A stretch of 51,080 nt of DNA from Candidatus Bathyarchaeia archaeon (GCA_049515895.1 JBEKTQ010000022.1:1-51080), one strand, 5' to 3'; positions 5,520 to 25,105 are shown, counted from the first letter of the stretch. Made by a program: numbers and translations. The notes: generated by a model from the letters alone, not told the origin.

Positions 5520-5638
5520 AACAAAAACACCTTCAATACACTGTTACAACTTTTGATGTTTAACTCTATCGGGAAGCAAAATAGCAAAATACCGCCACTA
5601 CAAAAGTTGGCTTTTTAGCGTTCAGAATTCAAATGGGT

Positions 5639-6743: not shown

Positions 6744-6931
6744 ACCTAATCAAGAAATAACAAGTGCTATCGTAACCACTTCATGAGCTTAGCGCAAAGA
6801 CTTGATTTCACAGGTTGATCTCCAACCTTCAGAAATTTTTGCTGTGAAAAATCCAACGACTTTGTTCTTATGCTTTTAAAACATTAAGCGAATCCTGGCA
6901 ATAGCACTGAAATACTTTCTGTTTATCAGCA

Positions 6932-6979
6932 AGTGAGTCGGGTGGGATTTGAACCGTAATGGGTTCAAACCACAAAGAC
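6932..6979 (-). repeat. 48-bp tRNA-3'-end-bearing element, copy A (att-like scar)
   Basis: Minus strand GTCTTTGTGGTTTGAACCCATTACGGTTCAAATCCCACCCGACTCACT; 44/48 identical to 24957-25004. Confidence 0.9.
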
Positions 6980-7106
6980 TTTAAAAAGTAAAAATAATGC
7001 AGATTCTTTAAAAACAGTTAATAGCGAGCATTTCTACGCGAAAAGCGAGCTGAACCAAGCTTCTCCTGCCAAGTTATTTCTGGTAGCTATTAAGTAAAAT
7101 CATCTT

Positions 7107-7137
7107 TGACGCCCTTGCCCAGCTAGGCTATCGGCGG
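7107..7137 (-). ncRNA. Orphan tRNA 5' half (positions 1-29), isotype undetermined
   Basis: CCGCCGA TA GCCT AGCTGGGCAA GGGC G TCA: acceptor 5' strand, U8/A9, D-arm with A14, G15 and GG; no matching 3' half in the window. Confidence 0.65.
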
Positions 7138-7153
7138 TTCTGAACTCAAGAGA

Positions 7154-7231
7154 TGGTGGGGCTGGAGAGATTTGAACTCTCGTCTATAACGCCCGAGGCT
7201 ACAAGCCTAGACCAAGCTAGCCGACAGCCCC
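7154..7231 (-). tRNA. tRNA-Pro (CGG)
   Basis: GGGGCTG/CAGCCCC acceptor, anticodon arm GTAGC-CT-CGG-GC-GTTAT, T-arm GAGAG-TTCAAAT-CTCTC, encoded CCA. Confidence 0.93.
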
Positions 7232-7327
7232 TGTTTATGTTTGACTTGGTTTTTTCGGGGTTTATAGAATAATGCTGGCTTAGGCTTTAAACTTTAACGG
7301 TTGAAAAATGTTTGTTGTTGACGTTGG

Positions 7328-7930
7328 TTAAACGCTGGTTGCCGCGGTAACAGGAGGCGTCGTGGTCGATTCGGACTCGCTTAGAGCTGAGCTGACATGG
7401 CTGTGGTATAGTCTTGCGGTTATACATAGCGCGGTAGCTACTACTGCAAGATAGAAGGGCAATTGAAATGTTCCTGAGACCAAAGCGCTAACGGTGGCGC
7501 CCATAGTCCAGCTTCCAGGTAGCGTGACTGTTGCTGAACCATTCAGTGGAAGGTATACACCGAAATGTCCCGCGATCAACAAAATTATTGCTAGGACCAC
7601 AACAAAACTTACAACTGAATACAACGGTTTTTTATACGAGAATCCGAGCAGGTGTTTAGCGTAAGGTTTTGTCGGAACCAACGAGTAAATCAGCATAATT
7701 ATTCCGCTGGCCGAGAATGTTAGTATGGTTACAAGGTTGAGGGCCCAAATTAGAGGTATTGTAAATTGCGTGCCGAATAAACCGAAATTTGTGTTGACGG
7801 GAGAAGCATTGATTTTAATGAGGCTTTGGCCGACGGTTAGCTGCCACCAGGGCATGTAAAGGGAGATTGCGAGAGCTATTAGCGTGATGATTCCAGCAGC
7901 GAGACCAATCCAGTTTATTTTTCTAGTCAA
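7328..7930 (-). CDS. Multi-pass membrane protein
   Basis: Four hydrophobic segments; translationally coupled to the upstream gene. Confidence 0.8.
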   Translation of the reverse strand: MTRKINWIGLAAGIITLIALAISLYMPWWQLTVGQSLIKINASPVNTNFGLFGTQFTIPLIWALNLVTILTFSASGIIMLIYSLVPTKPYAKHLLGFSYKKPLYSVVSFVVVLAIILLIAGHFGVYLPLNGSATVTLPGSWTMGATVSALVSGTFQLPFYLAVVATALCITARLYHSHVSSALSESESTTTPPVTAATSV

Positions 7931-7931
7931 A

Positions 7932-8525
7932 TCAGGTTCCCCCTGGGCTTCCTGTTAGACTTTGCAGGTTTGAAATTGAACCCGCGTCGATGTGGTCAAT
8001 GTGCACAAGAACTCCGCCGACATCTACGTTTACATTGTTCAAGGCAATGTTGAGGTTGCCCCCAGTGTTTTGCGCTGCAAGCTGATTTACTGCGTCAGGA
8101 TTCAAATTTCCTGAGGCATTTATTACCGAATTTGCTCCTGGCGGTATGCTGATTGTTTGAGGCATGGAGATGTTGCCCAATGAAGTGCCATCTTCCGTGA
8201 CTACTTGCGCTGACAGATGATCGAACGAAATTTCGGTTGATAGAGGGTTAGTGAAATTGAATGGGTAAGTAAAGGCGCCGGTGGTTGGATTGTACTTTGG
8301 TTGCCCAGCCGGCTGGGGGATTTGAAAATTCGGCAGCGAAGGCGAAGCTGACGACTGTGGCCCAGCAGAGGTTCCGCTGTTCCCACCGCCGTTCATTAAG
8401 TTCTTCATTTGAGGCGGAAGAACCAACCCCAACAAATTGTCCTTGTAAGCGTACACTTCAGCCACTAAAGGCACAATAATGATCATAATGGAGAGAACTG
8501 TTAAAGCCACCTTGACTTTATCCAT
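7932..8525 (-). CDS. Membrane-anchored protein, LEA2/WHy-like beta domain
   Basis: N-terminal TM, Pro/Ser linker, FNFTNP motif. Confidence 0.7.
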   Translation of the reverse strand: MDKVKVALTVLSIMIIIVPLVAEVYAYKDNLLGLVLPPQMKNLMNGGGNSGTSAGPQSSASPSLPNFQIPQPAGQPKYNPTTGAFTYPFNFTNPLSTEISFDHLSAQVVTEDGTSLGNISMPQTISIPPGANSVINASGNLNPDAVNQLAAQNTGGNLNIALNNVNVDVGGVLVHIDHIDAGSISNLQSLTGSPGGT

Positions 8526-8750
8526 AACCTGCTTGCCCTGCTTAGATGTTATTCGGCTCTAACCGCTTTTAATAGTTACGTAACAAGAATTCAGTCTCTG
8601 AATCAATTTTCTTAGACCATGATCAGTAGGTACTTGATCTGTTTCGGTTGAATTCTTAAGAGTAGATTTCTCTCTCTCCCAATCGACTGGTTTTTTCTCA
8701 AGACTTTCACGAATCTGCTACACGAAGAGTGACGCGAATGGACAAGAAAA

Positions 8751-8803
8751 GTCGAAAAGGAGTTGGAAGAGTCGGGTTGGGTCGGGATGGGTCGCAACCT
8801 GCA
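8751..8803 (+). repeat. Phased 10-bp GTCG array ending in CGCAACCTGCA
   Basis: GTCG at 8751, 8771, 8781, 8791 (GTCGGGTTGG GTCGGGATGG GTCGCAACCTGCA). Confidence 0.7.
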
Positions 8804-8936
8804 ACGCCTCAAGCTCAAACCGAGAAAGTAACCCAAAACACAATGAGGCAAAATTCGCCGCCTTTTGTCTCAGCGGTCTTTTTTGGGCTTCCTAAATGCC
8901 TGAGTTTTCTTTTGTTTCTGCGAGTTTGGTCGGTGT

Positions 8937-9031
8937 TTGACTTTAGTTGACGTTTGTTGACGTTAATTGACGTTTATTGACTTTGGTTGACGTTAGTTGA
9001 CTTTTGTTGACGTTAGTTGACGCAACCTGCA
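8937..9031 (+). repeat. Tandem array of nine 10-bp units, consensus TTGACKTTDR, ending in CGCAACCTGCA
   Basis: TTGAC at 8937, 8947, ... 9017 with exact 10-bp spacing. Confidence 0.95.
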
Positions 9032-9314
9032 GATGATTTAAGCTTTTCCACAAAAAAGCAACCCAAAACACAAACAACAAAAAACGCCGATAAAAATGAT
9101 TAACCCCTCGGTAATTCGGCACCGCTTATATACGAAACTTACACGTACTCCATGCAACGATTTGACGAGCCACGGAACGCAAACAAGCAAACGGCTAGAC
9201 GCTTTAAAGCGAAGTTTAAAAACGGGGCAACTTCAGGCTTAAAGTTTAAGGTTATAGTTCAAACACTCTTTTATTGCCCGTTCTCAGTCCAGACAAATAG
9301 TGAGTTGAACTAAT

Positions 9315-9965
9315 TTGCGTAACCGTTTCGTTGACAGATGGAAAAAGAAAGACGAACAGCCTACTCTTGTATCGAAAGTTAAAAACGTCGTCAAGCCACA
9401 AGAAAACCTCAAGGGACAAATCGCCCTGGTCATTCAACGCATTGACGTGCAAACGAGAACATTAGACAACGCGGTACAACGATTTCAAAACCGCGACGCA
9501 GACGTCTTTAACCGAGTCGTAAAAGCTTTTTCAGAAAGGGATGAGGCACGAGCACACATTCTCGCCACAGAACTCTCGGAAATACGCAAAATCGAGAAAA
9601 TGATAACAAACGCCTCTCTTGCCATGCAAAGCGTATCAATGCGCCTGAACACGGTTTCAGAAATGGGAGACCTAGTGGCTGTGCTTAGTCCCGCGAAAAA
9701 CGTGATAAACAGCATTCGCTCGGGGATGTGCGATATACTTCCAGAAGCAAGCACCGAACTCGGAAACATCGGCAACCTCCTAAACGACATAGTCGGCACC
9801 ACCTGCCAAACCGCAGACATACCCGTCAACACCACACGAATAGACCCCGAGGCAGAAGCAATCCTAAAAGAAGCAGAGATAGCCACTGAGAGAAAACTCA
9901 AACAGCAACTTCCCGAAGTATCCGCAGGTGATTCAAGAGAAAGACTGGCAAGCTTGGAAGCCTAG
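9315..9965 (+). CDS. Snf7/ESCRT-III family protein (CdvB1/B2-like paralog)
   Basis: ARAHILATELSEIRK, SMRLNTVSEMGD, PEASTELG, EAEAILKEAE ... LP tail typical of TACK CdvB paralogs; no C-terminal wH. Confidence 0.9.
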   Translation: MRNRFVDRWKKKDEQPTLVSKVKNVVKPQENLKGQIALVIQRIDVQTRTLDNAVQRFQNRDADVFNRVVKAFSERDEARAHILATELSEIRKIEKMITNASLAMQSVSMRLNTVSEMGDLVAVLSPAKNVINSIRSGMCDILPEASTELGNIGNLLNDIVGTTCQTADIPVNTTRIDPEAEAILKEAEIATERKLKQQLPEVSAGDSRERLASLEA

Positions 9966-10011
9966 CAATCCATCCTTTCCCACCCTTTTTTACAAAACAA
10001 GAAAAGAGGGT

Positions 10012-10341
10012 TTAAGCTATTCTTGTTATGGCCCTTTTCTTTGTGTCGCTCATTTTGTTGGTTATTTCTTGAAATACCAAATAGTTCTCTTCCATAGGTT
10101 GGGAGAGGAAATATACGGTGGAGTAGTGGGTTCCGACTGGGATGACAAGTTTGTTTTTTTCTAGAATCGTCAGGTGATGCCTTATTGTCTTGTAGTCAAC
10201 TTTGAGTTGTGTGGCTAGCTGGTTTGCGTTTCTCGGGTTGTTTCGGACGCTTTTGATTATTTTGGCGCGGGTCTTTCCGCCTTTTGATCCTATGATTAAC
10301 CACCCGAGTAAATGTTTTAGCGGTTGATCGTTGGTTATCAT
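10012..10341 (-). CDS. ArsR-like winged-helix transcriptional regulator
   Basis: WLIIGSKGGKTRAKI, PRNANQLA, DYKTIRHHL motif of the archaeal wHTH family. Confidence 0.9.
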   Translation of the reverse strand: MITNDQPLKHLLGWLIIGSKGGKTRAKIIKSVRNNPRNANQLATQLKVDYKTIRHHLTILEKNKLVIPVGTHYSTVYFLSQPMEENYLVFQEITNKMSDTKKRAITRIA

Positions 10342-10374
10342 GTTGGTTTACCTGCAATTCTATATATATGCACT

Positions 10375-10395
10375 GCTACTATTTAAGGTAGTAGC
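10375..10395. promoter_or_regulatory. Putative BlaI operator 1, overlapping the TATA box of the divergent wHTH gene
   Basis: GCTACTA-TTTAAGG-TAGTAGC inverted repeat; minus-strand TTAAATA lies inside it. Confidence 0.75.
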
Positions 10396-10541
10396 TGCTA
10401 TGAACCGTCACAGCCTCCGTTCAGAGCTTGCTCAACCCATTGATGCAATACATTCGAAAAAAACAGAAGAAGGAACGGGAAACCTTCGCTTACCAAATTT
10501 TCGAAACTAAAAAGGATGCAAGTTGGGAAAAGCTTAAAGAG

Positions 10542-10560
10542 CTACTATAGAAGATAGTAG
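10542..10560. promoter_or_regulatory. Putative BlaI operator 2, just downstream of the blaI-like promoter
   Basis: CTACTAT-AGAAG-ATAGTAG perfect inverted repeat after GAAAAG-CTTAAAGA (BRE/TATA-like). Confidence 0.8.
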
Positions 10561-10574
10561 TGCGGTAGCACGCT

Positions 10575-11024
10575 ATGACTGAAGACAAAAAACCCGGATT
10601 CTCACAATACAACATGGGAGGTAAAGCCTTAGAAGCATTCTTGGGACCACTTGAAGCCAACGTCATGGAGTCAATTTGGGGCTCAAGGAAAACGCCGGTT
10701 ACAGTAAGAGAAATCTATGAAGTTCTTAAAAAAACAAGAGGCTTAGCCTACACAACCGTCATGTCTACCATGGACAGGCTGTTTGAAAAGAAGCTTCTTG
10801 ACCGCAAAATAGAGAAGGGCAGAGGCGGGCTGTACTATGTTTATTGGCCATCGCTTGAAAAGCAATCCTTTCAAAAATCCGCTGTTCGCGAGGTTCTTTC
10901 AAGCCTTATCGACAACTTTGGTGAAGTTGTGGCTAACTGTTTAGTGGATGAAACCTCCTTAAGCGAAGAAGAACGCATAGCTCTAAAAGATCAATTAAAC
11001 AGGAACATATCAAAAAAGAAGTAA
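10575..11024 (+). CDS. BlaI/MecI/CopY family repressor
   Basis: LGPLEANVMESIW, TVREIYE, LAYTTVMSTMDRLFEKKLL motifs. Confidence 0.93.
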   Translation: MTEDKKPGFSQYNMGGKALEAFLGPLEANVMESIWGSRKTPVTVREIYEVLKKTRGLAYTTVMSTMDRLFEKKLLDRKIEKGRGGLYYVYWPSLEKQSFQKSAVREVLSSLIDNFGEVVANCLVDETSLSEEERIALKDQLNRNISKKK

Positions 11025-11044
11025 GTTTGGAAGGTGTGCTTTGA

Positions 11045-12484
11045 ATGGGTTTTGAAGGCATCCTCAACCAGATTTTTCAACCATACTTCTACTATTCCGT
11101 AATATTCCTAGTTGTTTCGTTTTTATCCGTCAAAATCCTAACTAAATACTGCAGCTTCCTAGGGCAAAGAACAAAGAGCCTACTGTACCTCTTCCCATTA
11201 GTCCTTCCCCTAGCAGTTATGCTTGTCGCTTTTCCTTCAACAGGCATTCAGACAACCTACCAACAAATAAAAATCCTAAGTACAGCTGGCAATAATGGAG
11301 CCGCAAACTCGTTTCCATTTGGTCCCTTCTTTCCGCCTCCTGTGCCACAGGTTATTAATGTAACAAGCACAGTGCTTTCGGTTACAGGAATAATGTGCTA
11401 CATCGGGCTAATTGCAGGAGCCTTATTCGCGGTGTCGATGGTTCTTGCCGATGACCGATTAGCAAGAAAGATACTGCATGTAATTTTGCTGTCTCAAGAA
11501 GAGCATCAATGGCTGCAGGTAAAGATAACCGAAGCCTCCAAAAAATTAGCCATATGCGCGCCTAAAGTTGGAATCGTCGAAGACCTGCGGCCTAACGCAT
11601 TCACGATTGGCTACGGTAAAAGAGCAACAATAGTTTTCTCGATTGGACTACTCAACATACTAAACAAGGAAGAAATAGTCGCTGTTGCGTCTCATGAGTT
11701 GGCGCATGTTAAAAACAACGATTTCTTCTTCAAAACCATATCTAACGCCTTGACAACTGTTTCCTTTTTCAACCCGCTTGCATATATTTCGGCTTCAACC
11801 GCTCAAAGAGAGAGGGAAATGCTTGCTGATGAACGGGCAATAGGGCTCCTCGAAAAACCTTCGGCTTTAGGAGACGCACTTGTTAAGATTTGCAAAGCAA
11901 TTCAAAACCTGCCCAAAGAAAGCATGCTGGTTAACTTCTCTTCGAATCTTCTGATTACTTCTTCAGTTCTGCACAGAGTCGGAATACTTGCAACCCACCC
12001 GAGATTAGATATGCGACTAAGAAACATCTCTGCGCCGAAACCACACAACAATCGCTGGAGTAGTCGAAATACCCGCTTGGCTTTTGTCCTTTCCTTCCTC
12101 TTGATTTTTTCCGCTGTAGCAGTTAGCCTGGCAATGGTGGATCTGCAAGTGAATTTCACAGCGGATTTCGCAGCCTCACATTACCTGAAGGCATTTCCGA
12201 GCGATTTTAGGGTGACGGGCTACCAAATGGGTTCATTCAATGGCACTTTGATGCCCGGAGTAGCTGCGGTTTCCTTTAATGACGCGCAAAGCGTACATGT
12301 GCTAATTTACTGCCCTGACCCAGCCGCAAGAATCAGAACTAGTTACGCAGAAATGGGCGACAACGTGGGATTTAACCCACAGGAAATTTCAGTTGGAGGA
12401 TTCATCGTGATCTCCCCACAAAATCCTTCATATTCTCCAATTCAAACGCCTATTAGTTTGCCTGACTCGATATGGATAGGGTAA
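11045..12484 (+). CDS. BlaR1-like membrane zinc metalloprotease (M56/M48) with non-PBP C-terminal domain
   Basis: TM helices, PNAF, HELAH, EMLADE, THP; adjacent to the BlaI gene. Confidence 0.88.
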   Translation: MGFEGILNQIFQPYFYYSVIFLVVSFLSVKILTKYCSFLGQRTKSLLYLFPLVLPLAVMLVAFPSTGIQTTYQQIKILSTAGNNGAANSFPFGPFFPPPVPQVINVTSTVLSVTGIMCYIGLIAGALFAVSMVLADDRLARKILHVILLSQEEHQWLQVKITEASKKLAICAPKVGIVEDLRPNAFTIGYGKRATIVFSIGLLNILNKEEIVAVASHELAHVKNNDFFFKTISNALTTVSFFNPLAYISASTAQREREMLADERAIGLLEKPSALGDALVKICKAIQNLPKESMLVNFSSNLLITSSVLHRVGILATHPRLDMRLRNISAPKPHNNRWSSRNTRLAFVLSFLLIFSAVAVSLAMVDLQVNFTADFAASHYLKAFPSDFRVTGYQMGSFNGTLMPGVAAVSFNDAQSVHVLIYCPDPAARIRTSYAEMGDNVGFNPQEISVGGFIVISPQNPSYSPIQTPISLPDSIWIG

Positions 12485-12544
12485 ATCTGCTGACTGCAAT
12501 AGTCGAAAACTTGAAAACCGATCCAACTGCTTCCAATTCCTTTC

Positions 12545-13333
12545 TTATTGTGCTTGAATGTAGCTAGTAGTAAAGCCTTCTCCATCGGCTGTAATGGTTG
12601 AGACTGAAGTTAACTGCGTGTTGACGCTGTTAGTCATTTCTATCCTTGAAAAATAAAACGATTTTATCGGACCCGATTTATTTTCTGTGGCCAAATGGCA
12701 GCTTGTGAAAGTGACATTTCCAAAATCGGCTAGAGCGCTAAGCTTGGTACTCACAGTAGGCCGCTCAATTACCCACTCGCCTGAAGAACGCGTAGAGTTA
12801 TAGAAGACAGTTGTACCGAAATATTGTCCAGTTGTTGAATCACTTATCTGAATGTTCCATCGGTTTACAGATGAATCAACCAAACGTAAAGATGCAACCA
12901 TTATGTCCCCGGGAGAAACAGCTAAAGTGTTTATTCTGACGGCGTAAGCGGGGAGCAGCTCATACCAAGCATAATAGGTTTCTTGCCCACCACTCACGTC
13001 TTGTTCCGTTCCTGCCTGAATTAACGTGTTATCGAGTTGTCCGCCGACTCCAATCCACACGGATGAGTGTTCATCGCTTGCCGAAGTGACAACTGTGGGA
13101 ATAGTCCAGGAAGCGTTCATGGCAGTGACTTGAATCTTGGCGTTAGTGTCTCTCGAAATGATGTATCCAGCCCAGCTTAGGCTTGAAATAGTTTCTCCCT
13201 GAGGGTTATTGGCAAAAATTAATAGCAGAGCGGTGAGGAAAGACAGCACCAGCGCTAAGAGCATAATCCATATAAGAATAAGAAAAATCACTCGGTTTCG
13301 AAATTTCATCTTTCCAAACACGCCGTTCACCAA
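12545..13333 (-). CDS. Glutamic endopeptidase, family G1 (eqolisin-like), membrane-anchored
   Basis: SWAGY, WIGVGG, LIQAG (catalytic Gln), YYAWYE, EWVIERP (catalytic Glu), LADFG. Confidence 0.9.
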   Translation of the reverse strand: MVNGVFGKMKFRNRVIFLILIWIMLLALVLSFLTALLLIFANNPQGETISSLSWAGYIISRDTNAKIQVTAMNASWTIPTVVTSASDEHSSVWIGVGGQLDNTLIQAGTEQDVSGGQETYYAWYELLPAYAVRINTLAVSPGDIMVASLRLVDSSVNRWNIQISDSTTGQYFGTTVFYNSTRSSGEWVIERPTVSTKLSALADFGNVTFTSCHLATENKSGPIKSFYFSRIEMTNSVNTQLTSVSTITADGEGFTTSYIQAQ

Positions 13334-13539
13334 TCAGAGTCGACTAACTTCCGCCTGTTGCGATAGTGCTAGCCCGAAAAATATTCAATTAAGTTGTGCA
13401 GGCGCTAAATAAAAGTATTTGTTGAAGCAATTCTTTTCAAAGAATTGGAGGAGACGAAGTTACACTTGAAAAGCTTTAAAACAACTATTCAGGTAAGGTT
13501 TACTAACGCTTAATTCCTTGAGGGTACAGTGTACTTTTT

Positions 13540-14379
13540 ATGTTTCATGTCAAACCGATGAGCAAAGCTGATTTTCGGTTTGCGACAAAACTCGCGAACA
13601 CCATGAACTGGAACATGGCAAACGAAGACTTCCAGTTTATGATTAGTCTCGAACCTGAAGGTTGCTTTGTCGCATTTCACGGCAGGGAACGCGTTGGCAT
13701 AGCGACAAGCATAAGTTTCGGCAAGGTGGGCTGGTTCGGGAACTTGATCGTTAAAGAAAAATACCGAAAAAAGGGAGCAGGAAAACTTCTTGTAAGACAC
13801 TCTATCAAGTACCTTCAAGCGAGAGGCGCACAAACCATCGGGCTTTACGCGTATCCAAGCCTTGCCGATTTCTACGGCAATTTAGGATTCAAAGTTGATG
13901 AGGATTTCGCGGTTTTGCAAGCTAAAGACTTAGGTTCCTTAGCGTCCGAAGGCTTACCGAGAGTGACAAGGCAGCAGATTAAGGCAATTGAGAAGTTTGA
14001 TAGACAAAGTTTTGGAGGAGACAGACAGAAACTGCTTGAATCTATCATCCTTGAAAAAGGCAATTTAAGCTATTTCAAATCTGAAGAAAATGAAGTTGCT
14101 GGTTACGTTGCTGCCACGGTTTATGAGAAAATGGTTTGGATAGGACCACTGATATGCCGGGAAGGTAAAGTGGATGTTGCAATCTCGCTTCTTAGAACAG
14201 TTCTATCCAACGTGGCGGGCAAAAGCGTTTACTTGGTTCTTCCAAGGAAGGAGGCGGCCCTCGCGGACATGCTTTTTAGTGCTGGCTTTAAGGAAGATTT
14301 TTCAGTGTCAAGGATGTTTTTAGGTCAAGCTGTGGCAAAAAATTGTATATATTTGGCTGAATCTTTAGAACGAGGATAA
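13540..14379 (+). CDS. GNAT acetyltransferase (tandem GNAT, YitH-like)
   Basis: V-x-EKYRKKGAG acetyl-CoA motif, FYGNLGF, second GNAT with IGPL. Confidence 0.88.
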   Translation: MFHVKPMSKADFRFATKLANTMNWNMANEDFQFMISLEPEGCFVAFHGRERVGIATSISFGKVGWFGNLIVKEKYRKKGAGKLLVRHSIKYLQARGAQTIGLYAYPSLADFYGNLGFKVDEDFAVLQAKDLGSLASEGLPRVTRQQIKAIEKFDRQSFGGDRQKLLESIILEKGNLSYFKSEENEVAGYVAATVYEKMVWIGPLICREGKVDVAISLLRTVLSNVAGKSVYLVLPRKEAALADMLFSAGFKEDFSVSRMFLGQAVAKNCIYLAESLERG

Positions 14380-14382
14380 GAT

Positions 14383-15750: not shown

Positions 15751-15755
15751 GAGCA

Positions 15756-17470: not shown

Positions 17471-17670
17471 TCAATACACTTCTCAAAGGCGGTTTTTTGT
17501 TTTATATTAGGCTATTGTTAACTTATTTTTGAATATAAGTTCGATTGCTTTTTTGATTATTTCGGAATTGCTTTTAGGTGCTTTGCAGAACTAGAATAGA
17601 ACAGGTTCATTTGTTGGTTATTTGGCGCTTTATAGTTTAAATAGTCTTTTAACTTATTTTGCGGTACGGG

Positions 17671-20600
17671 ATGAACGCCGTGACGGAAATTGAAGAGACT
17701 GAAACTGATTCGACAAGTTTGCCTGCAAACTACTCTCCGCTTGCCTTGGAGAAGGAAATCCGCGAGTTCTGGCTTACTCAGAAAATTCGCGAGAAACTTG
17801 AGCTCTTAGAACAAAACGCTAAAGGGTTGCTTGGTTACGTGGAAGGTCCGCCTACGCTGAACGGTATCCCTCACATTGGGCACGCCCGCGGCAGAGTGAT
17901 GAAGGACGTTCGCTACAGATGGAAAACCATGGAAGGCTATTACATGCCGTTTTGGGCTGGATGGGACTGCCAAGGTTTGCCAGTGGAACTGGAGGTTGAG
18001 AAGCTTCTCGGGGTTAGGAACAAGCGTGAATCAATCGAGAAATACGGGATGGAACGGTTCATTGATGAATGCAAGAAAGCTATTATGCGCTATCATGCCA
18101 TGTGGCTGCAGGCTGACTCAAACCTCGGCGTGTTCATCAACCAAGAGAAAGCTTATTGGACATACAAGGACAGCTACATCGAGCGAGAATGGCAAATCCT
18201 AAAGTGTGCTTGGGACCAAAAACTGCTTGAAGAAGGCCACTATGTTGTCGCTTACTGTCCTGGCTGCCAAACCAGTCTCAGCAGCGCCGAAGTCGGATAC
18301 GAAGGCAGCTACAAAGAAGTGGAAGACCCATCATTGTACTTCAAGTTCAAAGTTGTCGGCAGCAAAAACGAGTTTTTCTTGATATGGACAACCATGCCCT
18401 TCACCATAATAACTGACACCATGCTCGCGGTTCAACCATCCGCTGAATACGTTAAAGTCAAGGTGGGTGAAGAAACTTGGATAATGGTTAAGCAAAGGGT
18501 TGAACCCGTAATGGCGGAGCTTGAAATCACAAAGTTCCAAATCGCCGATTCGGTTCTCGGCAAAAACTTAGAAGGAACAGCCTATGAGTACCCACTCAAA
18601 GACATGATTCCTAAACAAGCGGAAAACGAAACCCTGCATCCATTAGTTCATAAGGTCATTGGCGAGGACTTTGTTGACGTCAACACCGCCACTGGCGTTG
18701 TGCATCTTTCGCCTGGTAACGGCGAGGATGATTTTTGGGCGGCACAACGCAGAGGAGTTCCAATCTTCGCGCCTTTCGACGACGAAGTAAAATTCACCAA
18801 TGACGCAGGGCTATTCACTGGTATTTTCGCTCGTGAAGCAGATTTCCTGGTTGTTGAGGAACTTCGCAATAGAAACGCTTTCGTGAAAGTCACCATGGTG
18901 AAGCATGAGTACCCGACGTGCTGGCGTAGTCATCACAAGCTGGTTTGGCTAGCGAGAAAAGAATACTTTCTGCGAACAGACAAGATAAACAGCAAGGTTC
19001 TAGAAGCAGCAGAAAAAGTAGATTACTTCTTCGATGAACCCAAAAACCGTTTCTTTGGCTTCCTCAAAGAAGGAAAACCTTGGTGCATTAGCCGCGAACG
19101 CATTTGGGGAACACCACTGCCAATCTGGACTTGCGAAAGCTGCGGAGAAAAGCACATAATCGCTAGCAAAAAGGAGCTCCTTGACTGTGCATTAGAAGCA
19201 GTTCCAGACGACTTTGAGTTACATAAGCCTTGGGTGGACCGTGTCACATTCAAATGTGAGAAATGCGGCGGAATCATGCGCCGCGAGGATTTCGTGTTGG
19301 ATACATGGCACAACAGCGGTGCTTCACCTTACGCACGCTTCACCGATGAGGAAGTTGCAAAGTTTGTGCCCTCCGATTTTCTAACTGAAGGTATCGATCA
19401 AACCCGAGGCTGGGCGAACAGTCTGCTGCTGGAACATGTCATCTTGACGGGGAAGTCTGAGGCACCGTATAAGTCATTTCTGTTTCAAGGGCTCACGCAG
19501 GACGCTAAAGGCAGAAAAATGAGCAAAAGCCTCGGCAACGTCGTTGAAACCAACAAACTTTTGGAGAAGAACTCCGCTGATCTGTGCCGCTTCTATATGA
19601 TGCGAAAATGCTCTTCGATTGACTTCATGAACTTCGACACGCAGGAACTCAATAGACGCTCGTATCAAGTGCTATCAACGCTGTACCACTTAAGCAGGTT
19701 CTTTTTGCAAAACGCAACTTTTGACGAATTCACCCCATCCAAATATACTTTGGAGTGGGCTTCCAAAGTGAATAAACTTCAAGCCGCCGACAGGTGGCTC
19801 CTCTCTAAATTGCAGGAGAAAATTGAGGATTACACAGCTAAACTTGGGCGATGCGAATTCAGCAACGCCGTCGCCGTCTTAGATGACTTCGTGATTGAAA
19901 CTCTCAGCAGGCTTTATGTGCCCATGATTCGCAAAGAGCTTTGGACCGACGAACCTGAAACGTTTGAGCGCCGTCAAACTATCTATGCATTGCTTTATCA
20001 CACCTTGAAGGCTGTAACCTTGCTGTTCAACCCCGTTACGCCTTACCTAAGCGAGGCACTTTACCAGAAGATTTTCAGGCAGCTTGAACCGGATCTGCCT
20101 GAATCGGTCAACATGGCGCCCTGGCCAACACCAAACTTGGAACTCCGAGACAAAACCCTTGAAGAACAATTCGAAATCTTACTTGAGACGGTTTCAATAG
20201 GTTACGCTGCAAGGCAAGAGGGCAAACTAAAGCGTAGATGGCCCCTTAGCAAAGCGATAGTAGTAGCCCCAGAAAAAACATTAGGCGCATTACAACATCT
20301 GGAATCCTTATTCTTGGAGCTTACAAACGTGAAGGGCGCAGAATACGCGACAAAAGTTCCCGAATACGTTGGAGGCGAAAACTGGGTTTCGTCACAAGTC
20401 GACAACGTCATCGTGTTTGTGAGCGGGCAACGAGACGAAAACTTGCTTGGCGAAGGAATAATGCGCGACTTAGCACGACGCGTTCAAGCTCTTCGGAAAG
20501 AAATGGGTTTTGTGCCAACTGAAATTTTAGAGTCCGTGCATATCGCCGAGTTAGATGCAGAAAGTATGGGTTTGCTTGAGCCGTTCTTGGAGGAAATGGC

Positions 20601-20715
20601 TGGGTTGGTACGAGCGAGGAAAGTGTATTTGCATAGCAGCTGCAAAGAAGAAGTTGACGCGGATTGGCATCAATCGGAACTAGACAACAAAAAAATATAC
20701 CTCAACATACACTAA
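17671..20715 (+). CDS. ileS: Isoleucine--tRNA ligase (archaeal/type 2)
   Basis: EGPPTLNG-HIGH, GWDCQGLPVE, WCISRER, EGIDQTRGW, KMSKS. Confidence 0.96.
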   Translation: MNAVTEIEETETDSTSLPANYSPLALEKEIREFWLTQKIREKLELLEQNAKGLLGYVEGPPTLNGIPHIGHARGRVMKDVRYRWKTMEGYYMPFWAGWDCQGLPVELEVEKLLGVRNKRESIEKYGMERFIDECKKAIMRYHAMWLQADSNLGVFINQEKAYWTYKDSYIEREWQILKCAWDQKLLEEGHYVVAYCPGCQTSLSSAEVGYEGSYKEVEDPSLYFKFKVVGSKNEFFLIWTTMPFTIITDTMLAVQPSAEYVKVKVGEETWIMVKQRVEPVMAELEITKFQIADSVLGKNLEGTAYEYPLKDMIPKQAENETLHPLVHKVIGEDFVDVNTATGVVHLSPGNGEDDFWAAQRRGVPIFAPFDDEVKFTNDAGLFTGIFAREADFLVVEELRNRNAFVKVTMVKHEYPTCWRSHHKLVWLARKEYFLRTDKINSKVLEAAEKVDYFFDEPKNRFFGFLKEGKPWCISRERIWGTPLPIWTCESCGEKHIIASKKELLDCALEAVPDDFELHKPWVDRVTFKCEKCGGIMRREDFVLDTWHNSGASPYARFTDEEVAKFVPSDFLTEGIDQTRGWANSLLLEHVILTGKSEAPYKSFLFQGLTQDAKGRKMSKSLGNVVETNKLLEKNSADLCRFYMMRKCSSIDFMNFDTQELNRRSYQVLSTLYHLSRFFLQNATFDEFTPSKYTLEWASKVNKLQAADRWLLSKLQEKIEDYTAKLGRCEFSNAVAVLDDFVIETLSRLYVPMIRKELWTDEPETFERRQTIYALLYHTLKAVTLLFNPVTPYLSEALYQKIFRQLEPDLPESVNMAPWPTPNLELRDKTLEEQFEILLETVSIGYAARQEGKLKRRWPLSKAIVVAPEKTLGALQHLESLFLELTNVKGAEYATKVPEYVGGENWVSSQVDNVIVFVSGQRDENLLGEGIMRDLARRVQALRKEMGFVPTEILESVHIAELDAESMGLLEPFLEEMAGLVRARKVYLHSSCKEEVDADWHQSELDNKKIYLNIH

Positions 20716-20740
20716 ATAGGCGGCACGGAAAGGAAAGAAC

Positions 20741-20917
20741 ATGACAGAAGGGAAAAACAACAACCATTTCTACAAGTGCCCACATTGCGCTTGCGTATTT
20801 TTGACCCAAGCCGACTTGCAAAAACACATGAACCGCTTCGGAGACCGCAAAGAAGAGCATGAGTTTTCTTACCGCAAAACGCACGGAAGAATAGAACACG
20901 GCTATGGAGAAGAATAA
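20741..20917 (+). CDS. C2H2-like zinc-finger microprotein (58 aa, not in ORF track)
   Basis: MTEGKNNNHFYKCPHCACVFLTQADLQKHMNRFGDRKEEH...; purine-rich leader; follows ileS. Confidence 0.75.
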   Translation: MTEGKNNNHFYKCPHCACVFLTQADLQKHMNRFGDRKEEHEFSYRKTHGRIEHGYGEE

Positions 20918-20986
20918 TTTTTTCGCTGTGTTTCCAACCGAAAGCTCTAAATGCGCTTCAGCGCTATTTTTTCAAAAACGCAAGTT

Positions 20987-21064
20987 GGGCCGGTAGATCA
21001 GTCTGGTATGATCGCCGCGTTCGCAACGCGGAAGCCGCGGGTTCAAATCCCGCCCGGTCCACCA
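20987..21064 (+). tRNA. tRNA-Ala (CGC)
   Basis: GGGCCGG/CCGGTCC acceptor with G3:U70, CCGCG-TT-CGC-AA-CGCGG, GCGGG-TTCAAAT-CCCGC, CCA. Confidence 0.97.
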
Positions 21065-21487
21065 AATGCGTTTTAACCTATTTTGGAAATAGGATTTGAT
21101 TAAATAATTAAGCGAGACCCATCGGACCCGCCTCCTTGTCTAGTATGGGTCTCTATGGGAATTTGGCTCCAAATGAGGTTGGAGCTTGGCTTCAGATGTC
21201 GAGGACCCATTCCCGTTTTCTTTTAAGGTGATTAGCATAATGCTCTGCTTCAAGAGGGCATGCAACAGGTTTTAGACGGCGGAGAAGGGTATCTTCTCAA
21301 CGGACGTTTATAAGCACTTGTGTAATGGTTTGTAAGAAGAAGAATTTGTCTGCGTCATTTTTCTGTCAGCTAAGATGGTTTAGAACTCAAAATAAGCCCG
21401 GTTAGCGAACGCCAAGACCCGAGGCCTCCCCCCAAAATTACACAAAACTGTGTAATGGCCATGAGTGTTTTCGCTCTACCTGATTAC

Positions 21488-21512
21488 GGTTCAAATCCCG
21501 CCCGTTCCACCA
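21488..21512 (+). repeat. Direct repeat of the tRNA-Ala 3' end (attR-like)
   Basis: GGTTCAAATCCCGCCCGTTCCACCA, 24/25 identical to 21040-21064. Confidence 0.92.
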
Positions 21513-21907
21513 CAGATTTCTCTTTTCATAAGAGAGAACTCTGGTTAGGAGAAAAATTTGAGTTCATTTGGATTTTTCGAATATCAATGTAGCCTTAACG
21601 ATTTCAGGTTTGATGTGGAGATAGCTCTACTAGCTCCGTTGCCCATTCAAGAGTGACAAAGTTGTAGTGGTTTACCCTGGACTAACCGAGTGAGAAATCA
21701 GGTATATCTTATAACGGATCGAGCACAAGAGTTGGTTTGGTTGTGAAGAGAAGGGAGAGTATGAGAAGCCAAACCACTCTTTTCTATAACATTGTTCTAT
21801 AATCTCTTTCCGTGGGTGTTTTTTAGTTGATGATGCCTACTAAAGAAATGGGAGATTTTGAAGGGGAGCTCTCTAGTAATAAGACGATGAATTTGAGGAA
21901 TTGAAAT

Positions 21908-22249
21908 TTGAAAGCAAGAAATACGTACACTTTGGCTGGAAAACGTAAGCTAGGGTTTGAAGCAACCTTGATGCCTAAAGAAACGTTAAGGAAGAAGCTG
22001 GTGGGAGCTAAGTTTGGTGTGGCTCCAAATTTAAGTGTTCTTCAACGTTTTCGGATTCAACTTTTTGGCGGTGCATTTCTACGTTGGGTTAAGCCCGCAG
22101 GCTATTCCGGTGCTGTACCCGTTTACCTAGTAAAGTGTAGTCATCATGGCTTGTACACAGATACTCCACATGGGTATAGCAAGTATTTTCAATGCCCTGA
22201 TTGTTTGGCTGAAGCCAAAGAAGAAGCTGATAAACACAAATTTCCCTGA
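21908..22249 (+). CDS. Zinc-finger protein, mobile-element-like
   Basis: KCSHHG ... PHGY ... CPDC. Confidence 0.7.
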   Translation: MKARNTYTLAGKRKLGFEATLMPKETLRKKLVGAKFGVAPNLSVLQRFRIQLFGGAFLRWVKPAGYSGAVPVYLVKCSHHGLYTDTPHGYSKYFQCPDCLAEAKEEADKHKFP

Positions 22250-22277
22250 AAACAAAAAGCAGCTTACCACTAAAGAA

Positions 22278-22451
22278 ATGGAAGATGAGGGGAAGCTCTT
22301 GAGTAATAAAAACGATGAAATTGAGGAATTGACACAAGCACTTGACCTCTTAAACGATGAAATCAATACCCTCGTTGAGCTGCTAGAAAGACGAGGGATT
22401 TTAACAAATCAACGTTCGCTAATGATTAGTTGTTCCAATGCTGACGGATGA
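22278..22451 (+). CDS. Short coiled-coil protein, possibly truncated
   Basis: MEDEGKLL...LDLLNDEINTLVELLERRGIL heptads; ORF track 22146-22451. Confidence 0.45.
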   Translation: MEDEGKLLSNKNDEIEELTQALDLLNDEINTLVELLERRGILTNQRSLMISCSNADG

Positions 22452-22457
22452 TGCAAA

Positions 22458-22757
22458 ATGAACGCCAACGATAGCCACGGTCGATTCGAAGTATCTGTTA
22501 ACCTTTTTGTTGATCCGACCCAGAAGGCGCAGGTTATATATGCCCTCGAAAAGGTTGAAAACATCGAGGAAATTTATGATGTAAAAGGGGAATTTGATAT
22601 CGTTTCTATAGTTTCGGCCTCGAGCATGGAAGAATTCCACGATGTCTTGAAGAAAAAAATCATGAAAATCAGGGGCGTCCAAAGCATCATAACCTCAGTC
22701 GTACTCAAAACATATAAACAGCCCAAATCCACCTTGGGCAATATTCATACCCGGTAA
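22458..22757 (+). CDS. Stand-alone Lrp/AsnC ligand-binding (RAM) domain protein
   Basis: EEIYDVKGEFDI ... IMKIRGVQSIITSVVL; no HTH. Confidence 0.88.
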   Translation: MNANDSHGRFEVSVNLFVDPTQKAQVIYALEKVENIEEIYDVKGEFDIVSIVSASSMEEFHDVLKKKIMKIRGVQSIITSVVLKTYKQPKSTLGNIHTR

Positions 22758-23130
22758 CCAAGGTCTTAGCGCGCGTTTTAAATTTAGGCCATAAGTTCCA
22801 ATGGAAAATGGGGCGTTTCCACTATTTAATTTAAAAGAAATCGCTAACGATATAATAAAATTTGTAGTCCTAAGTTCCAAAGTGCGCATTTACACTGAAA
22901 GTGGAGGGTTGAAGGAGAGCAAAATTGGAGCGTCCCGATTTTATTCTTTTGACTGCGATGAGATTGGGGAAGGGAAAGAGAAACCGTTACGCCGTGTTTT
23001 TCTTGTTACCTTTTGTTTGTATGCTTTTCATTATAGGTTGGGTTTTGTCAAACCTGTAATTAGTTATTTGAGTAAAATAAAGACTTTTCAAAAAAACAAA
23101 AAAGGGAAATAAGTTTTGGTTGCTAGACTC

Positions 23131-23240
23131 TTATGGTTTTTTCCTAAGCATTAGCAAACCGACTATGGCTATTGCAATGATTATGGCGATTACTCCGATC
23201 CCCATGTACATCGTCAGGTCAGAAGCAGTTGCACAGTTTG
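23131..23240 (-). pseudogene. Orphan C-terminal membrane-anchor fragment of a surface protein
   Basis: ATASDLTMYMGIGVIAIIIAIAIVGLLMLRKKP* with no upstream protein body. Confidence 0.6.
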
Positions 23241-23483
23241 CCGCTATCTTACATTTTCTCGGAGCAGCAGTTTGCGGCGGATTATTTTTTGCGTTTATGA
23301 GGCTCAAAAGGGCAGCTAAGCAGATTATTGCCTGAACTCCAAGTTCCTTAAAAAAAAATAGTCACCTCGAGTCTTTGGCGGTCGTTGTTTACCGAAAAAG
23401 CTGATTAGAAACCGCCAAGGGTTAAATACTGTTTGTAGAATAGTCTTCTCTCTCTTGGCCAAGCATGCGGGAAAGAAAGCAAA

Positions 23484-24683
23484 ATGAAAAAGAATGTAAT
23501 TCTTATTTTCATTCTTTGCGTGTTTTTAGTTTTGGTGTTCTCCCTGAGTATTTCGTGTGGAGTAGCCAACTCTAGCGGCAATTCTGAGGTACAGCCTGCC
23601 GTTTACTGGTGGACTATGTTCCACAATGATCTGGCACGCACAGGTTATTCAAATTCAACAGCGCCAAACACAAACGCTACCCTATGGACGTTCACGACTG
23701 GCGGCGACGTGAATGATCCAGCCGTTGTTGACGGCGTAGTATACATAGGCTCTTATGACGACCAGGTTTACGCTTTGAATGCTGCAAATGGTGCCTTCAT
23801 ATGGAATTTCACGACCCATGGCTACATAGATACTTCTCCTACCGTAGTTAACGGCATAGTCTTCGTAAATTCAGATGACAACAAGACTTACGCTTTGAAC
23901 GCTAAAAATGGCGCCCTCATATGGAGCTACACAACTGGACGGAGGATTGATAGTTCTCCTGCCGTAGCCGGGGGCATAGTGTATGTATGCTCAGACGACC
24001 ATAAGGTTTACGCTTTGAATGCTACTAATGGAGCCCTAGTATGGAATTACACAACCCGTGGGGAAGTGAACTCTTCTCCTGCCGTGGCGAACGGATTGGT
24101 TTTCGCGGGCTCACAAGACCACAACGTTTATGCATTAAATGCTTCTACCGGCGCTCTCGTCTGGAAGTACCCCACCAGCGGCTACGTGGATTCTGGTCCT
24201 GCCGTTGCTTATAAGATGGTTTTCACAGGCTCAGCAGACCACAAAGTCTACGCTCTAAATGCTTCTACCGGCGCTCTCGTGTGGAACTACACAACCGGCA
24301 ATATTGTAGCTGCCTCTCCCGCCGTGGCTGACGGCATCGTATTCGTAGGCTCGCTTGACCAAAAAGTTTACACTCTGAATGCCACAAATGGCACCCTCAT
24401 ATGGAGCTACACAACCGGCGGTATTTTGGTTTCCTCTCCTGCCATAGCCAACGGCGTGGTCTATTTAGGCTCATGGGACCACAAGGTTTATGCTTTTGGT
24501 TCGTCAAACGTCTACGCTTTATCCATCTTGAATTGGATCGTTCCAGTTTTAGTAGTTTTGGCAACTGCTATAAGTGCTGCGCTGCTTCCGTTTTCTGGTC
24601 GGAAAAGAAAAAGAAAGGGGAACCTCGTAGATTCCGCTGTTCAGGAAAATCCCCCAGAGTCAAAGCCGAATGGCACTTTGTAA
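23484..24683 (+). CDS. PQQ-like (BamB-type) beta-propeller surface protein
   Basis: Signal peptide, WWTMFHND...RTG, seven ~40-aa repeats SSPAV-x-G-x-V(Y/F)-x-GS-x-D-xx-VYALNA-xx-G-xxx-W, C-terminal TM plus basic tail. Confidence 0.93.
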   Translation: MKKNVILIFILCVFLVLVFSLSISCGVANSSGNSEVQPAVYWWTMFHNDLARTGYSNSTAPNTNATLWTFTTGGDVNDPAVVDGVVYIGSYDDQVYALNAANGAFIWNFTTHGYIDTSPTVVNGIVFVNSDDNKTYALNAKNGALIWSYTTGRRIDSSPAVAGGIVYVCSDDHKVYALNATNGALVWNYTTRGEVNSSPAVANGLVFAGSQDHNVYALNASTGALVWKYPTSGYVDSGPAVAYKMVFTGSADHKVYALNASTGALVWNYTTGNIVAASPAVADGIVFVGSLDQKVYTLNATNGTLIWSYTTGGILVSSPAIANGVVYLGSWDHKVYAFGSSNVYALSILNWIVPVLVVLATAISAALLPFSGRKRKRKGNLVDSAVQENPPESKPNGTL

Positions 24684-24956
24684 CCAAGTTGAGGTTGTTG
24701 ATGATACTGTAAAGTTGATTGTTCCAGAAGGGTCCCGCAAAAAGAGGAAACTTGAATTTTCAACAATTTGCTCCTGCCCCTTTGGGAGCAAGTCCGTTCC
24801 GACGCAGCCCTTCATGACCGCGTGTAGACCGGCTTGTATTCATTTAGGCTGCCCATGTACTACTAAGGTTTTGAGCCCAAAAGGGTTCAAGGATCTCCAG
24901 CTCCAAACTTTGATTATAAACTCACAAAACCTGATTCTACAAATTTTGGCAACAGT

Positions 24957-25004
24957 GTCTTTGTGGTTTGAACCCATTTCGGTTCAAATCCCGCCGGATT
25001 CACT
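24957..25004 (+). repeat. 48-bp tRNA-3'-end-bearing element, copy B (att-like scar)
   Basis: GTCTTTGTGGTTTGAACCCATTTCGGTTCAAATCCCGCCGGATTCACT; 44/48 identical to copy A. Confidence 0.9.
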
Positions 25005-25079
25005 ATTGAATTTTAACATAAAAGGAAGTGACTTCGGGTTATTCCGTTATCACTGAACCGAAAGAAAGTCGCTTGTTTG

Positions 25080-25105
25080 ATATATCGATTTTCGATATAT
25101 ATCGA
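25080..25105. promoter_or_regulatory. Overlapping palindromes, candidate operator
   Basis: ATATATCGA-TTT-TCGATATAT overlapping the perfect 14-mer TCGATATATATCGA. Confidence 0.45.

Follow-up and report, generated by a model that had tools for sequence, protein, structure and literature searches.

The 51,080-nt stretch analysed here (JBEKTQ010000022.1:1-51080 of GCA_049515895.1, Candidatus Bathyarchaeia archaeon; 'the window') carries two tRNA genes, each followed on the same strand by a copy of a 48-bp element, here called H1. Copy 1 (6932..6979, minus strand) lies ~175-200 nt behind tRNA-Pro(CGG) (7154..7231, minus) and copy 2 (24957..25004, plus strand) 3.9 kb behind tRNA-Ala(CGC) (20987..21064, plus). 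No other RNA families were identified (Rfam, gathering threshold; also at E<=1 over 20900-25100). As stated in the original prediction, the two copies are co-oriented with the upstream tRNA gene and identical at 44/48 positions (left half 23/24, right half 21/24). H1 units consist of a conserved left arm, TTGTGGTTTGAACCC, a variable spacer of 4-7 nt, and GGTTCAAATCC followed by a tRNA 3′ end, mostly of tRNA-Ala. In copy 2, the arm GTCTTTGTGGTTTGAACC and spacer CATTTC precede GGTTCAAATCC (from 24981) and a decayed tRNA-Ala-like 3′ end, CGCCGGATTCACT. Copy 1 has the same arm, spacer CATTAC, the T-loop and a decayed end, CACCCGACTCACT, with three mismatches in 23 nt to the end of tRNA-Ala(CGC); it lies behind tRNA-Pro and has no Pro tail. 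The tails, initially described as decayed tRNA 3′ ends, can be specified as tRNA-Ala-like. The inverted repeat TTTGAACC-N6-GGTTCAAA is present in both copies, and the window contains three matches to it at <=2 mismatches, versus 0.05 expected from shuffled sequences. As single strands, copies 1 and 2 fold into an 8-bp stem with a 2-nt bulge and four further pairs (z -1.9 and -3.3).

In congener G019 the site behind tRNA-Ala(CGC) is empty (IleRS, tRNA-Ala(CGC), 115 nt, then GOLD-domain and aspartokinase genes), while the window has ~4.2 kb of extra sequence between tRNA-Ala(CGC) and the GOLD-domain gene, with copy 2 near its far end. At the same point, seven other congeners have gaps or inserts of ~1 to >13 kb, or other content. 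The insert in the window begins directly behind the tRNA gene with E1 (21065..21482, plus), a gene-less repeat of ~390-440 bp present in six copies at 90-95% identity in this genome, which has no inverted ends, contains a tRNA-Arg-like tail relic (21118-21131) and is found at several-fold greater depth than its flanks in metagenome contigs. At the right junction of E1 (21483-21510, plus), ATTAC is followed by a duplicate of the terminal 25 nt of tRNA-Ala(CGC), CCA included, with 24/25 identity. This tRNA end had been noted as a third copy preceded by the same ATTAC; the tail is present, while the shared ATTAC is probably coincidental, since conservation in the H1 family is lowest in the spacer and the left arm here belongs to a different repeat, the other junction-bearing copy of which reads GTTTG instead.

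The cargo between the two tRNA-tail copies (21511..24862, plus) comprises small orfs along with genes for an AsnC ligand-domain protein (22458-22757) and a PQQ beta-propeller protein (23484-24683); this 3.4-kb segment was not found as one unit in 60 congeners. It is followed by the upstream part (24863..24956, plus) of a ~140-nt H1 module ending in copy 2, 72-81% conserved with loci in G072, G020, G047 and G053. Within the module are an older, decayed hairpin-plus-tail, TTTGAGCCCAAAAGGGTTCAAG (24870-24891, plus), and an AATTTT box 23-29 nt before the GTGG of copy 2; most H1 copies have this or another A/T-rich box at that distance. The H1 unit of copy 2 recurs in metagenome contig L103. Copy 2 is not the outermost boundary of the insert, as ~320 nt of unrelated sequence (25005..25323, plus) precede the return of similarity to G019 at ~25324, in the promoter region of the GOLD gene. 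The native tRNA flank is accordingly missing to the right of the copy 2 tail, and it is also absent from copy 1.

tRNA-Pro(CGG) anchors a second variable interval, which ends at an M50 peptidase gene (2987-4066). The arm upstream of copy 1 (6980..7153, minus) represents a second subfamily, common to loci in G016, G064, G076 and G042, and includes a decayed stretch resembling a tRNA 5′ half (7110-7135, minus). The segment behind copy 1 (4067..6931, minus) carries genes for a cupin, a zinc-ribbon membrane protein and a DUF2085 protein plus small orfs, none of which turned up in this interval in the six relatives used for comparison. Cargo seen in the analysis includes surface proteins, redox enzymes, toxin-antitoxin and defence genes.

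H1 is not confined to these two copies: there are seven in this genome, on six contigs, and further units in relatives and in peat or wetland metagenome contigs. Across a library of 185,579 species, Bathyarchaeia/Bathyarchaeota MAGs were the only source of the pattern. Of the seven own-genome units, three are no more than 4 kb downstream of a tRNA gene on their strand (simulation, P 0.00075) and five no more than 21 kb (P 0.0004); only copy 2 and the unit on contig C23 follow a tRNA-Ala. Comparison with relatives ties gene-content breakpoints to H1 units. Copy number, tRNA linkage and breakpoints together bear out the proposal that H1 units are end signatures of DNA inserted at tRNA loci. Half of the units from genome_contigs (12/24) carry the exact 11 nt found after the T-loop of one of the genome's three tRNA-Ala genes, and a unit 7.1 kb behind tRNA-Ala(TGC) in G072 has a TGC-type tail. 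Near-identical ~140-nt arms adjoin CGC-, GGC- and TGC-type tails, placing the crossover to the left of the isoacceptor-specific bases. Exact GGTTCAAATCC sites number 56 in the genome, versus at most five for shuffled 11-mers, and by hand count roughly half are orphans outside tRNA genes.

The original prediction placed a 6-bp crossover spacer between the two arms, which does not agree with the family as a whole. Nearly every copy differs in the spacer (at least 20 versions of 4-7 nt) and identity to the tRNA gene begins only to its right, as a 23-25-nt block starting at the GG of GGTTCAAATCC and running from the T-stem/loop to the 3′ end. For both reasons the crossover would be better placed inside GGTTCAAATCC, i.e. 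in the T-loop. An H1 unit of G047 consists of the arm, GGTTCAAATCCCGCCCGGTCCAC and TTTCAAAATGTCCAACTCATATTTATGGCTCAGCC, the last matching the flank directly after the tRNA gene in G019, and thus reads as a clean attR (arm, tRNA tail and native flank). In G016, an element with a decayed integrase lies between two tRNA-Ala(CGC) tail copies.

The left arm mirroring the T-loop is an unusual feature, and the palindrome that it forms is most likely a binding site on the arm of the element. Selection on the palindrome as such was considered and rejected: in the own-genome copies the arm erodes about as fast as the tail, mismatches in the stem (e.g. TCTGAACC) go uncompensated, and the match between arm and loop comes down to two possibly related cases (a CTTGAA hairpin arm beside 2/2 TTCAAG loops versus 2/55 TTCAAA loops; P ~0.004, with possible shared descent). 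Nor is an 'anti-T-loop' arm a general rule, being found at 6/81 T-loop motif sites scored outside predicted tRNA genes from an incomplete gene list, and mostly in H1 units.

No PF00589 match was obtained on the six contigs carrying the seven H1 units or in one whole unit-bearing genome, of unestablished completeness, in profile searches that could miss divergent recombinases. Similarly, none of the 20 orfs of the window, including those of the 21511..24862 cargo, had a match to a recombinase or integrase, and no integrase was found among 24 orfs of the C23 island, among 79 orfs around 19 metagenome H1 units, or between tRNA-Ala(TGC) and the H1 unit in G072. The only hint of an integrase is a weak tblastn match 13 kb from the unit on C17, and viral_contigs contained no match to a free element carrying the H1 site. 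H1 units without a nearby integrase are unusual; this absence fits the predicted supply of a recombinase in trans and equally fits dead relics. Four DNA read runs, examined as contigs, gave no excision junction at an H1 unit itself. One contig in run X1 joins 21061 to 25336, weakly (27 nt on one side, 90% likeness), and matches the empty site of relatives; loose ends after 21062 likewise correspond to empty-site flank. Both probably derive from relatives rather than from excision in this strain.

Copies 1 and 2 are best explained as attR-type junction relics of DNA inserted at the tRNA T-loop segment, to which we assign a probability of roughly 60%. Under this explanation, one family of elements would insert by site-specific recombination in GGTTCAAATCC of tRNA genes, mainly tRNA-Ala, restoring the gene with a tail copy of its own. 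The original tail would be displaced across the insert to its distal end and there adjoin the conserved end of the element, the H1 arm TTGTGGTTTGAACCC. Repeated insertion and decay would then account for the variable islands behind tRNA-Ala(CGC) and tRNA-Pro(CGG), which have no integrase today. Insertion probably also targeted relic T-loops within islands, and units with foreign tails, e.g. copy 1 behind tRNA-Pro, would be explained in this way. The enzyme was presumably a tyrosine integrase. Integrases use three sublocations within tRNA genes, of which the T-loop is one (Williams 2002 classes, cited via PMC8371274), and archaeal cases are on record of integration at the T stem-loop, of tandem integration, of integrase loss and of attR tRNA fragments (PMC8371274, PMC9897764). 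The family is undescribed, as first proposed, with respect to this particular arm only; insertion at a T-loop is otherwise a known kind of event. A keyword search of the literature, which is not proof of absence, returned no description of a palindromic arm beside a tRNA T-loop att site. A plain attR model explains neither the arm mirroring the T-loop nor gene-less arrays of 45-110-nt units with mixed tails.

Cis-mobilisable elements (CIMEs) of streptococci, considered here together with accretion at att sites, are integrase-less, att-bounded DNA that could be moved by the integrase of a related element. H1 segments are likewise att-bounded and lack an integrase, but have no identified helper, and their mobility is hypothetical here. 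H1 units recall integron attC sites and CALIN arrays in standing between unrelated genes as imperfect palindromes that all point the same way, contain a bulge and vary at the centre; however, H1 arrays lack an integron integrase, attI and promoter, their genes face both ways and one half-site is a tRNA tail. With no integrase beside the arrays and this mixed gene orientation, an attC cassette array was rejected. The archaeal dif/XerA site has a similar geometry (two 11-nt inverted repeats around a 6-nt spacer, PMC8371274; 8-13-nt arms around 4-7 nt in H1), but H1 is found in seven copies per genome rather than one, has a variable spacer (at least 20 versions) and is associated with tRNA-linked islands, so that a chromosome resolution site was also rejected. 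Tycheposon islands of Prochlorococcus (bioRxiv 10.1101/2020.12.28.424599) share variable tRNA-side islands, scattered partial tRNAs, degenerate elements and cargo outlasting the mobile part; they are bacterial and defined by integrases, whereas H1 is archaeal, known from junction modules alone and has a palindromic arm. H1 units are also close in form to the attR tRNA-gene fragments left by tyrosine-integrase elements that cross over in the T stem-loop (integrated archaeal plasmids and viruses). In both, a direct copy of the tRNA 3′ part marks the distal boundary of DNA inserted after an intact tRNA gene, with identity from the T-stem/loop onwards, and tandem inserts and integrase loss occur (PMC8371274, PMC9897764). 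H1 differs in that no integrase was found in or near the bounded segments, the arm carries an inverted T-loop copy right beside the core, and some units are distant from the tRNA gene they match or stand in gene-less mini-arrays.

Alternatively, H1 units could be live sites of a cassette system, with a recombinase encoded elsewhere that recognises palindrome and T-loop and transfers integrase-less gene cassettes, as well as mini-units devoid of genes, from one tRNA gene or relic T-loop to another. Such a system would be akin to integron attC sites or to cis-mobilisable elements. Co-oriented junction arrays dividing cargo without an integrase (four junctions in 10 kb in G072, five in 21 kb on C23) would fit such a system, as would mini-arrays whose 45-110-nt units end in Arg, Gly, Val and Ala tails, the arm/loop match at TTCAAG with the reservation on descent given above, and the six E1 copies at 90-95% identity, which imply recent spread of integrase-less DNA beside tRNA tails. 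We nevertheless regard it as rather unlikely, as no recombinase was identified, cargo genes lie in both orientations, the 3.4-kb cargo was not seen as a unit in 60 congeners, arm and tail decay alike with uncompensated mismatches, and the sole joint in the reads matches the empty site of relatives. Equally doubtful is the broader scheme of a T-loop-centred cassette system in the genus, perhaps in many archaea, in which the 11-bp T-loop segment would serve a trans-acting recombinase as its universal crossover point, H1-like palindromic arms would be recognition sites and every tRNA tail relic a landing pad, with cassettes and mini-units shuffled among tRNA-anchored islands and inserts able to seed T-loop introns.

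It is very unlikely that H1 is transcribed as a small RNA or is part of a disrupted tRNA (T-arm intron, split-tRNA 3′ half or AATTTT-driven tail-like RNA). The A/T-rich box 23-29 nt before GTGG has promoter-like spacing, but the T-run could equally be a terminator. Non-canonical introns are numerous in the tRNA genes of this genome, one of them in the T-loop of tRNA-Ala(GGC), yet all three tRNA-Ala isoacceptor genes are intact. GTGG, GCGG or ATGG would pair with CCCAC, CCCGC or CCCAT across the insert in three own-genome copies, whereas such pairing fails in others, e.g. L020, L025, L033 and L012. There is also no tRNA 5′ part or Rfam match upstream, and the fold is a plain 8-bp hairpin; without a 5′ exon or bulge-helix-bulge, and with tRNA-Ala genes intact, a multi-intron or split tRNA gene was rejected. 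Least tenable is a transposon or MITE end (casposon-like or IS-like), with the arm as terminal inverted repeat and the tail as target-site duplication: a duplicated 23-25-bp tail does flank inserts, but in the whole genome (<=2 mismatches) the inverted arm occurs only within H1 palindromes (known units and the C23 copy), other matches not being partner ends, which largely refutes this origin; E1 likewise has no inverted ends.

tRNA-anchored islands and tRNA-fragment scars are textbook features. The H1 scars have a conserved, lineage-specific module, an arm mirroring the T-loop, no integrases, and gene-less arrays with the tails of several tRNAs. If only relics, they are still useful markers of island borders in Bathyarchaeia MAGs. 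If active, they would reveal the means by which uncultivated peat archaea swap accessory genes, and would offer a concrete route to T-loop introns and to tRNA gene disruption, a process proposed from Caldiarchaeum population data (PMC3293823).

Two 48-nt units in the window, copy 1 (6932–6979, minus strand) and copy 2 (24957–25004, plus strand), are identical at 44 of 48 positions, as stated in the original prediction. Each consists of GTCTTTGTGGTTTGAACC, a spacer (CATTAC in copy 1, CATTTC in copy 2), the T-loop segment GGTTCAAATCC and a tRNA 3′-end-like tail (CACCCGACTCACT or CGCCGGATTCACT). The inverted repeat TTTGAACC-N6-GGTTCAAA reported earlier is also present, with three window matches (≤2 mismatches) vs 0.05 expected by chance, and the single-stranded fold of each copy has a stem of 8 bp, then a 2-nt bulge and four further pairs. 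Two tRNA genes of the window were detected with ARAGORN and Rfam, which overlook some intron-bearing tRNAs: tRNA-Pro(CGG) (7154–7231, minus strand) and tRNA-Ala(CGC) (20987–21064, plus strand). At 21483–21510, a third junction has ATTAC followed by a 24/25 match to the final 25 nt of tRNA-Ala(CGC). A decayed tRNA 5′-half-like stretch (GCCGATAGCCTAGCTGGGCAAGGGCG; 7110–7135, minus strand) lies just behind tRNA-Pro, within the arm leading to copy 1, and a probable intron-bearing tRNA-Leu is found at about 37254–37407. Non-canonical introns are present in many tRNA genes of this genome, in the T-loop of tRNA-Ala(GGC) and in the D region of tRNA-Pro(GGG), Arg(CCU) and Leu(UAA) (contigs C3:43674–43779, C14:67880–68060, C35:60–210, C15:3650–3810 and C30:10418–10560).

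The two copies belong to a larger family, H1, with seven units in the source genome (3.18 Mb, 53 contigs, the window being C22): two in the window and others at C10:119931, C17:17736, C20:41617, C37:1194 and near C23:32126. All genomes used are MAGs, in which contig ends frequently coincide with repeats, and estimated contamination of the source genome is 4.87%. The H1 consensus comprises an A/T-rich box (AATTTT) 23–29 nt upstream of TTGTGGTTTGAACC(C), a spacer of 4–7 nt in at least 20 versions, GGTTCAAATCC and a tRNA 3′ end. With window positions 24700–25040 as query, 22 of the 61 genus members, the source genome included, gave matches at E ≤ 0.001; a stricter pattern was present in 4/41 relatives, all four within the genus, and in none of 16 genomes from other families of the order. 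TGGTTTGAACC-N6-GGTTCAAATCC occurs in 24 stretches of genome_contigs (185,579 species), every one titled as a Bathyarchaeia or Bathyarchaeota MAG, and in 42 metagenome contigs, with no matches in viral contigs. In half of the genome_contigs units (12/24), the 11 nt behind the T-loop are exactly those of one of the three tRNA-Ala genes of the source genome (eight CGC-type, two GGC-type and two TGC-type). The ~140-nt H1 arms are 72–81% identical between species.

Three of the seven units in the source genome lie within 4 kb behind a same-strand tRNA gene (simulation P 0.00075) and five within 21 kb (P 0.0004), in support of the proposed link to tRNA loci. Comparison of the IleRS-tRNA-Ala(CGC) locus across nine congeners revealed an empty site in one of them, G019, where a GOLD-domain gene comes 115 nt behind tRNA-Ala(CGC), and this gene, the aspartokinase gene and two further genes keep the order seen in the window. 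Compared with this arrangement, additional DNA occupies 21065 to about 25323 of the window, in agreement with the predicted association with variable gene content. The tRNA-to-GOLD distance is about 1 kb in G016, 4.6 kb in G045, 12.2 kb in G056 and 12.6 kb in G063, and the GOLD gene was not found in the 11–14 kb compared behind tRNA-Ala(CGC) in G003, G047, G072 and G021; further tRNA-Ala tail copies are present in several of these loci. In G047, one unit (L023/L071) consists of the H1 arm, GGTTCAAATCCCGCCCGGTCCAC and TTTCAAAATGTCCAACTCATATTTATGGCTCAGCC, the last being the flank directly behind the tRNA gene in G019. This is an attR signature, i.e. element end, displaced tRNA tail and native flank, and together with the G019 empty site it supports the view that H1 units are end signatures of DNA inserted at tRNA loci. 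Four co-oriented T-loop junctions lie 1.9, 3.9, 7.1 and 10.1 kb behind tRNA-Ala(TGC) of G072, that at 7.1 kb being an H1 unit with a TGC-type tail. The interval between tRNA-Pro(CGG) and an M50 peptidase gene is variable (about 2.5–8 kb in the four of six relatives with both ends seen), and that of G047 includes a genuine tRNA-Pro tail copy. Separately, an AT-rich palindromic repeat (ATATATCGATTTTCGATATATATCGA; 25080–25105) is found in the extra DNA that separates copy 2 from the promoter of the GOLD gene. In G051 (C2:144906–149872) and G064 (C10:25977–27936), 1.4–4 kb of DNA absent from the window lie between the IleRS 3′ part and tRNA-Ala(CGC), which may reflect an insertion in or behind IleRS.

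Identity to tRNA genes starts at the GG of GGTTCAAATCC, the spacer being excluded in every case, contrary to the originally proposed crossover within the 6-bp spacer. Since near-identical ~140-nt arms adjoin CGC-, GGC- and TGC-type tails alike, strand exchange most likely took place within the T-loop segment, left of the isoacceptor-specific bases. A T-loop crossover agrees with the class of bacterial and archaeal tRNA integration sites located at the T stem-loop, as described in PMC8371274; the evidence is likewise in line with the tandem integration and integrase loss on record there, and with attR tRNA fragments, which are common according to PMC9897764. H1 units probably represent attR-type relics of elements that integrated into tRNA-Ala genes at the T-loop, the best-supported reading and one to which we assign a probability of roughly 0.6.

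The main rival, considered unlikely, is that H1 units are still-active sites of a cassette system with the recombinase supplied in trans. It draws support from a gene-less repeat of about 390–440 bp, E1, which in the window extends from tRNA-Ala(CGC) to the third junction (21065–21482) and is present in six copies with 90–95% identity in the source genome (also C13:11734–12150, C20:41695–42112, C2:122746–123124, C32:21914–22354 and C17:59349–59691). E1 lies immediately behind a tRNA gene or a relic tRNA tail. An inverted GGATTCG precedes the tRNA-Arg-like tail with which it starts, 2/6 copies end in a T-loop plus tRNA tail, and in metagenome contigs it reaches several-fold the depth of its flanks; it resembles either a miniature insert that has been spreading recently or a structured RNA element. 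Mini-arrays, in which 45–110-nt units carrying tails of Arg, Gly, Val and Ala type are chained on some contigs with no intervening genes, also favour active sites, as does the match between arm and loop: CTTGAA arms accompany TTCAAG loops in 2/2 hairpins vs 2/55 for TTCAAA loops (roughly P 0.004, a value affected by possible shared descent of the two matches). However, no H1-bounded segment was seen moving in the data examined, and no enzyme was found.

No recombinase linked to H1 was identified in the loci searched. The PF00589 profile, which may overlook divergent recombinases, had 13 matches in the source genome, none of them on C22, C10, C17, C20, C23 or C37; ORFs of the window (0/20), of the C23 island (0/24) and around 19 metagenome units (0/79) likewise gave no match. 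Candidate integrases beside tRNA genes are present on C8, C12, C16 and C35 of the source genome. Five related loci have 65 ORFs, one of which encodes an integrase; it is decayed and lies in a G016 element with a different arm. In five further genomes, no integrase lies closer than 16 kb, the one at that distance being on the wrong side, and one genome lacks any. A tblastn search gave a weak integrase-like match at a distance of 13 kb from the C17 unit. No RNA run covers the region. One contig from four DNA runs joins 21061 to 25336, with 27 nt only on one side, and loose ends after 21062 correspond to the empty-site flank; both probably derive from relatives with the empty site rather than from excision in this strain.

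The left arm of H1 is the T-loop plus 3′ strand of the T-stem, inverted and two bases short. Apart from the CTTGAA/TTCAAG match, stem mismatches are uncompensated, and arm and tail are similarly decayed in copies from the source genome. That H1 is an RNA gene or intron is very improbable, this reading failing its defining tests. Least probable of all is a transposon, which likewise fails such tests: a genome-wide search found the arm only inside H1 palindromes, so that it has no partner copy such as a transposon end would have.

Other junction families share the T-loop segment. Exact GGTTCAAATCC sites number 56 in the source genome, vs ≤5 for shuffled 11-mers, and roughly half (by hand count of the site list) lie outside tRNA genes; these adjoin various other conserved left arms, and a right arm that recurs among them, CATAGAGAC, comes straight after the T-loop. 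About nine T-loop junctions have another left arm, the imperfect palindrome GCGGGTGACATCTCCAC (e.g. C23:13655, C23:19836, C26:23080, C7:39932, C2:186794 and C1:225032). An older, decayed hairpin plus tail (24870–24905) is nested inside the ~140-nt H1 module.

Cargo genes include those for PQQ beta-propeller proteins, AsnC and TrmB regulators, short-chain dehydrogenases, flavodoxin and pirin, as well as PIN and MNT/HepT toxin-antitoxin components, a restriction-modification system and a TIR protein. The 3.4-kb cargo segment of the window was not found as one unit in 60 congeners. A small gene at 22458–22757, encoding an AsnC/Lrp ligand-binding domain alone, looks island-associated, with copies (78–83% DNA identity) in the tRNA-Ala(TGC) island on C23, on C40 and on C19, and also in many congeners. 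MNT/HepT pairs lie beside tRNA-Ala genes or fragments in G016 (L050, 7950–8587) and G072 (L054, 17423–18057).

Under the attR-relic reading, elements would insert at the T-loop of tRNA-Ala genes and leave such relics behind, and islands would grow through repeated insertion and decay, comparable to the island model proposed for tycheposons (bioRxiv 10.1101/2020.12.28.424599). Relic T-loops may in turn serve as secondary landing sites, which would account for copy 1, with its Ala-like tail behind tRNA-Pro.
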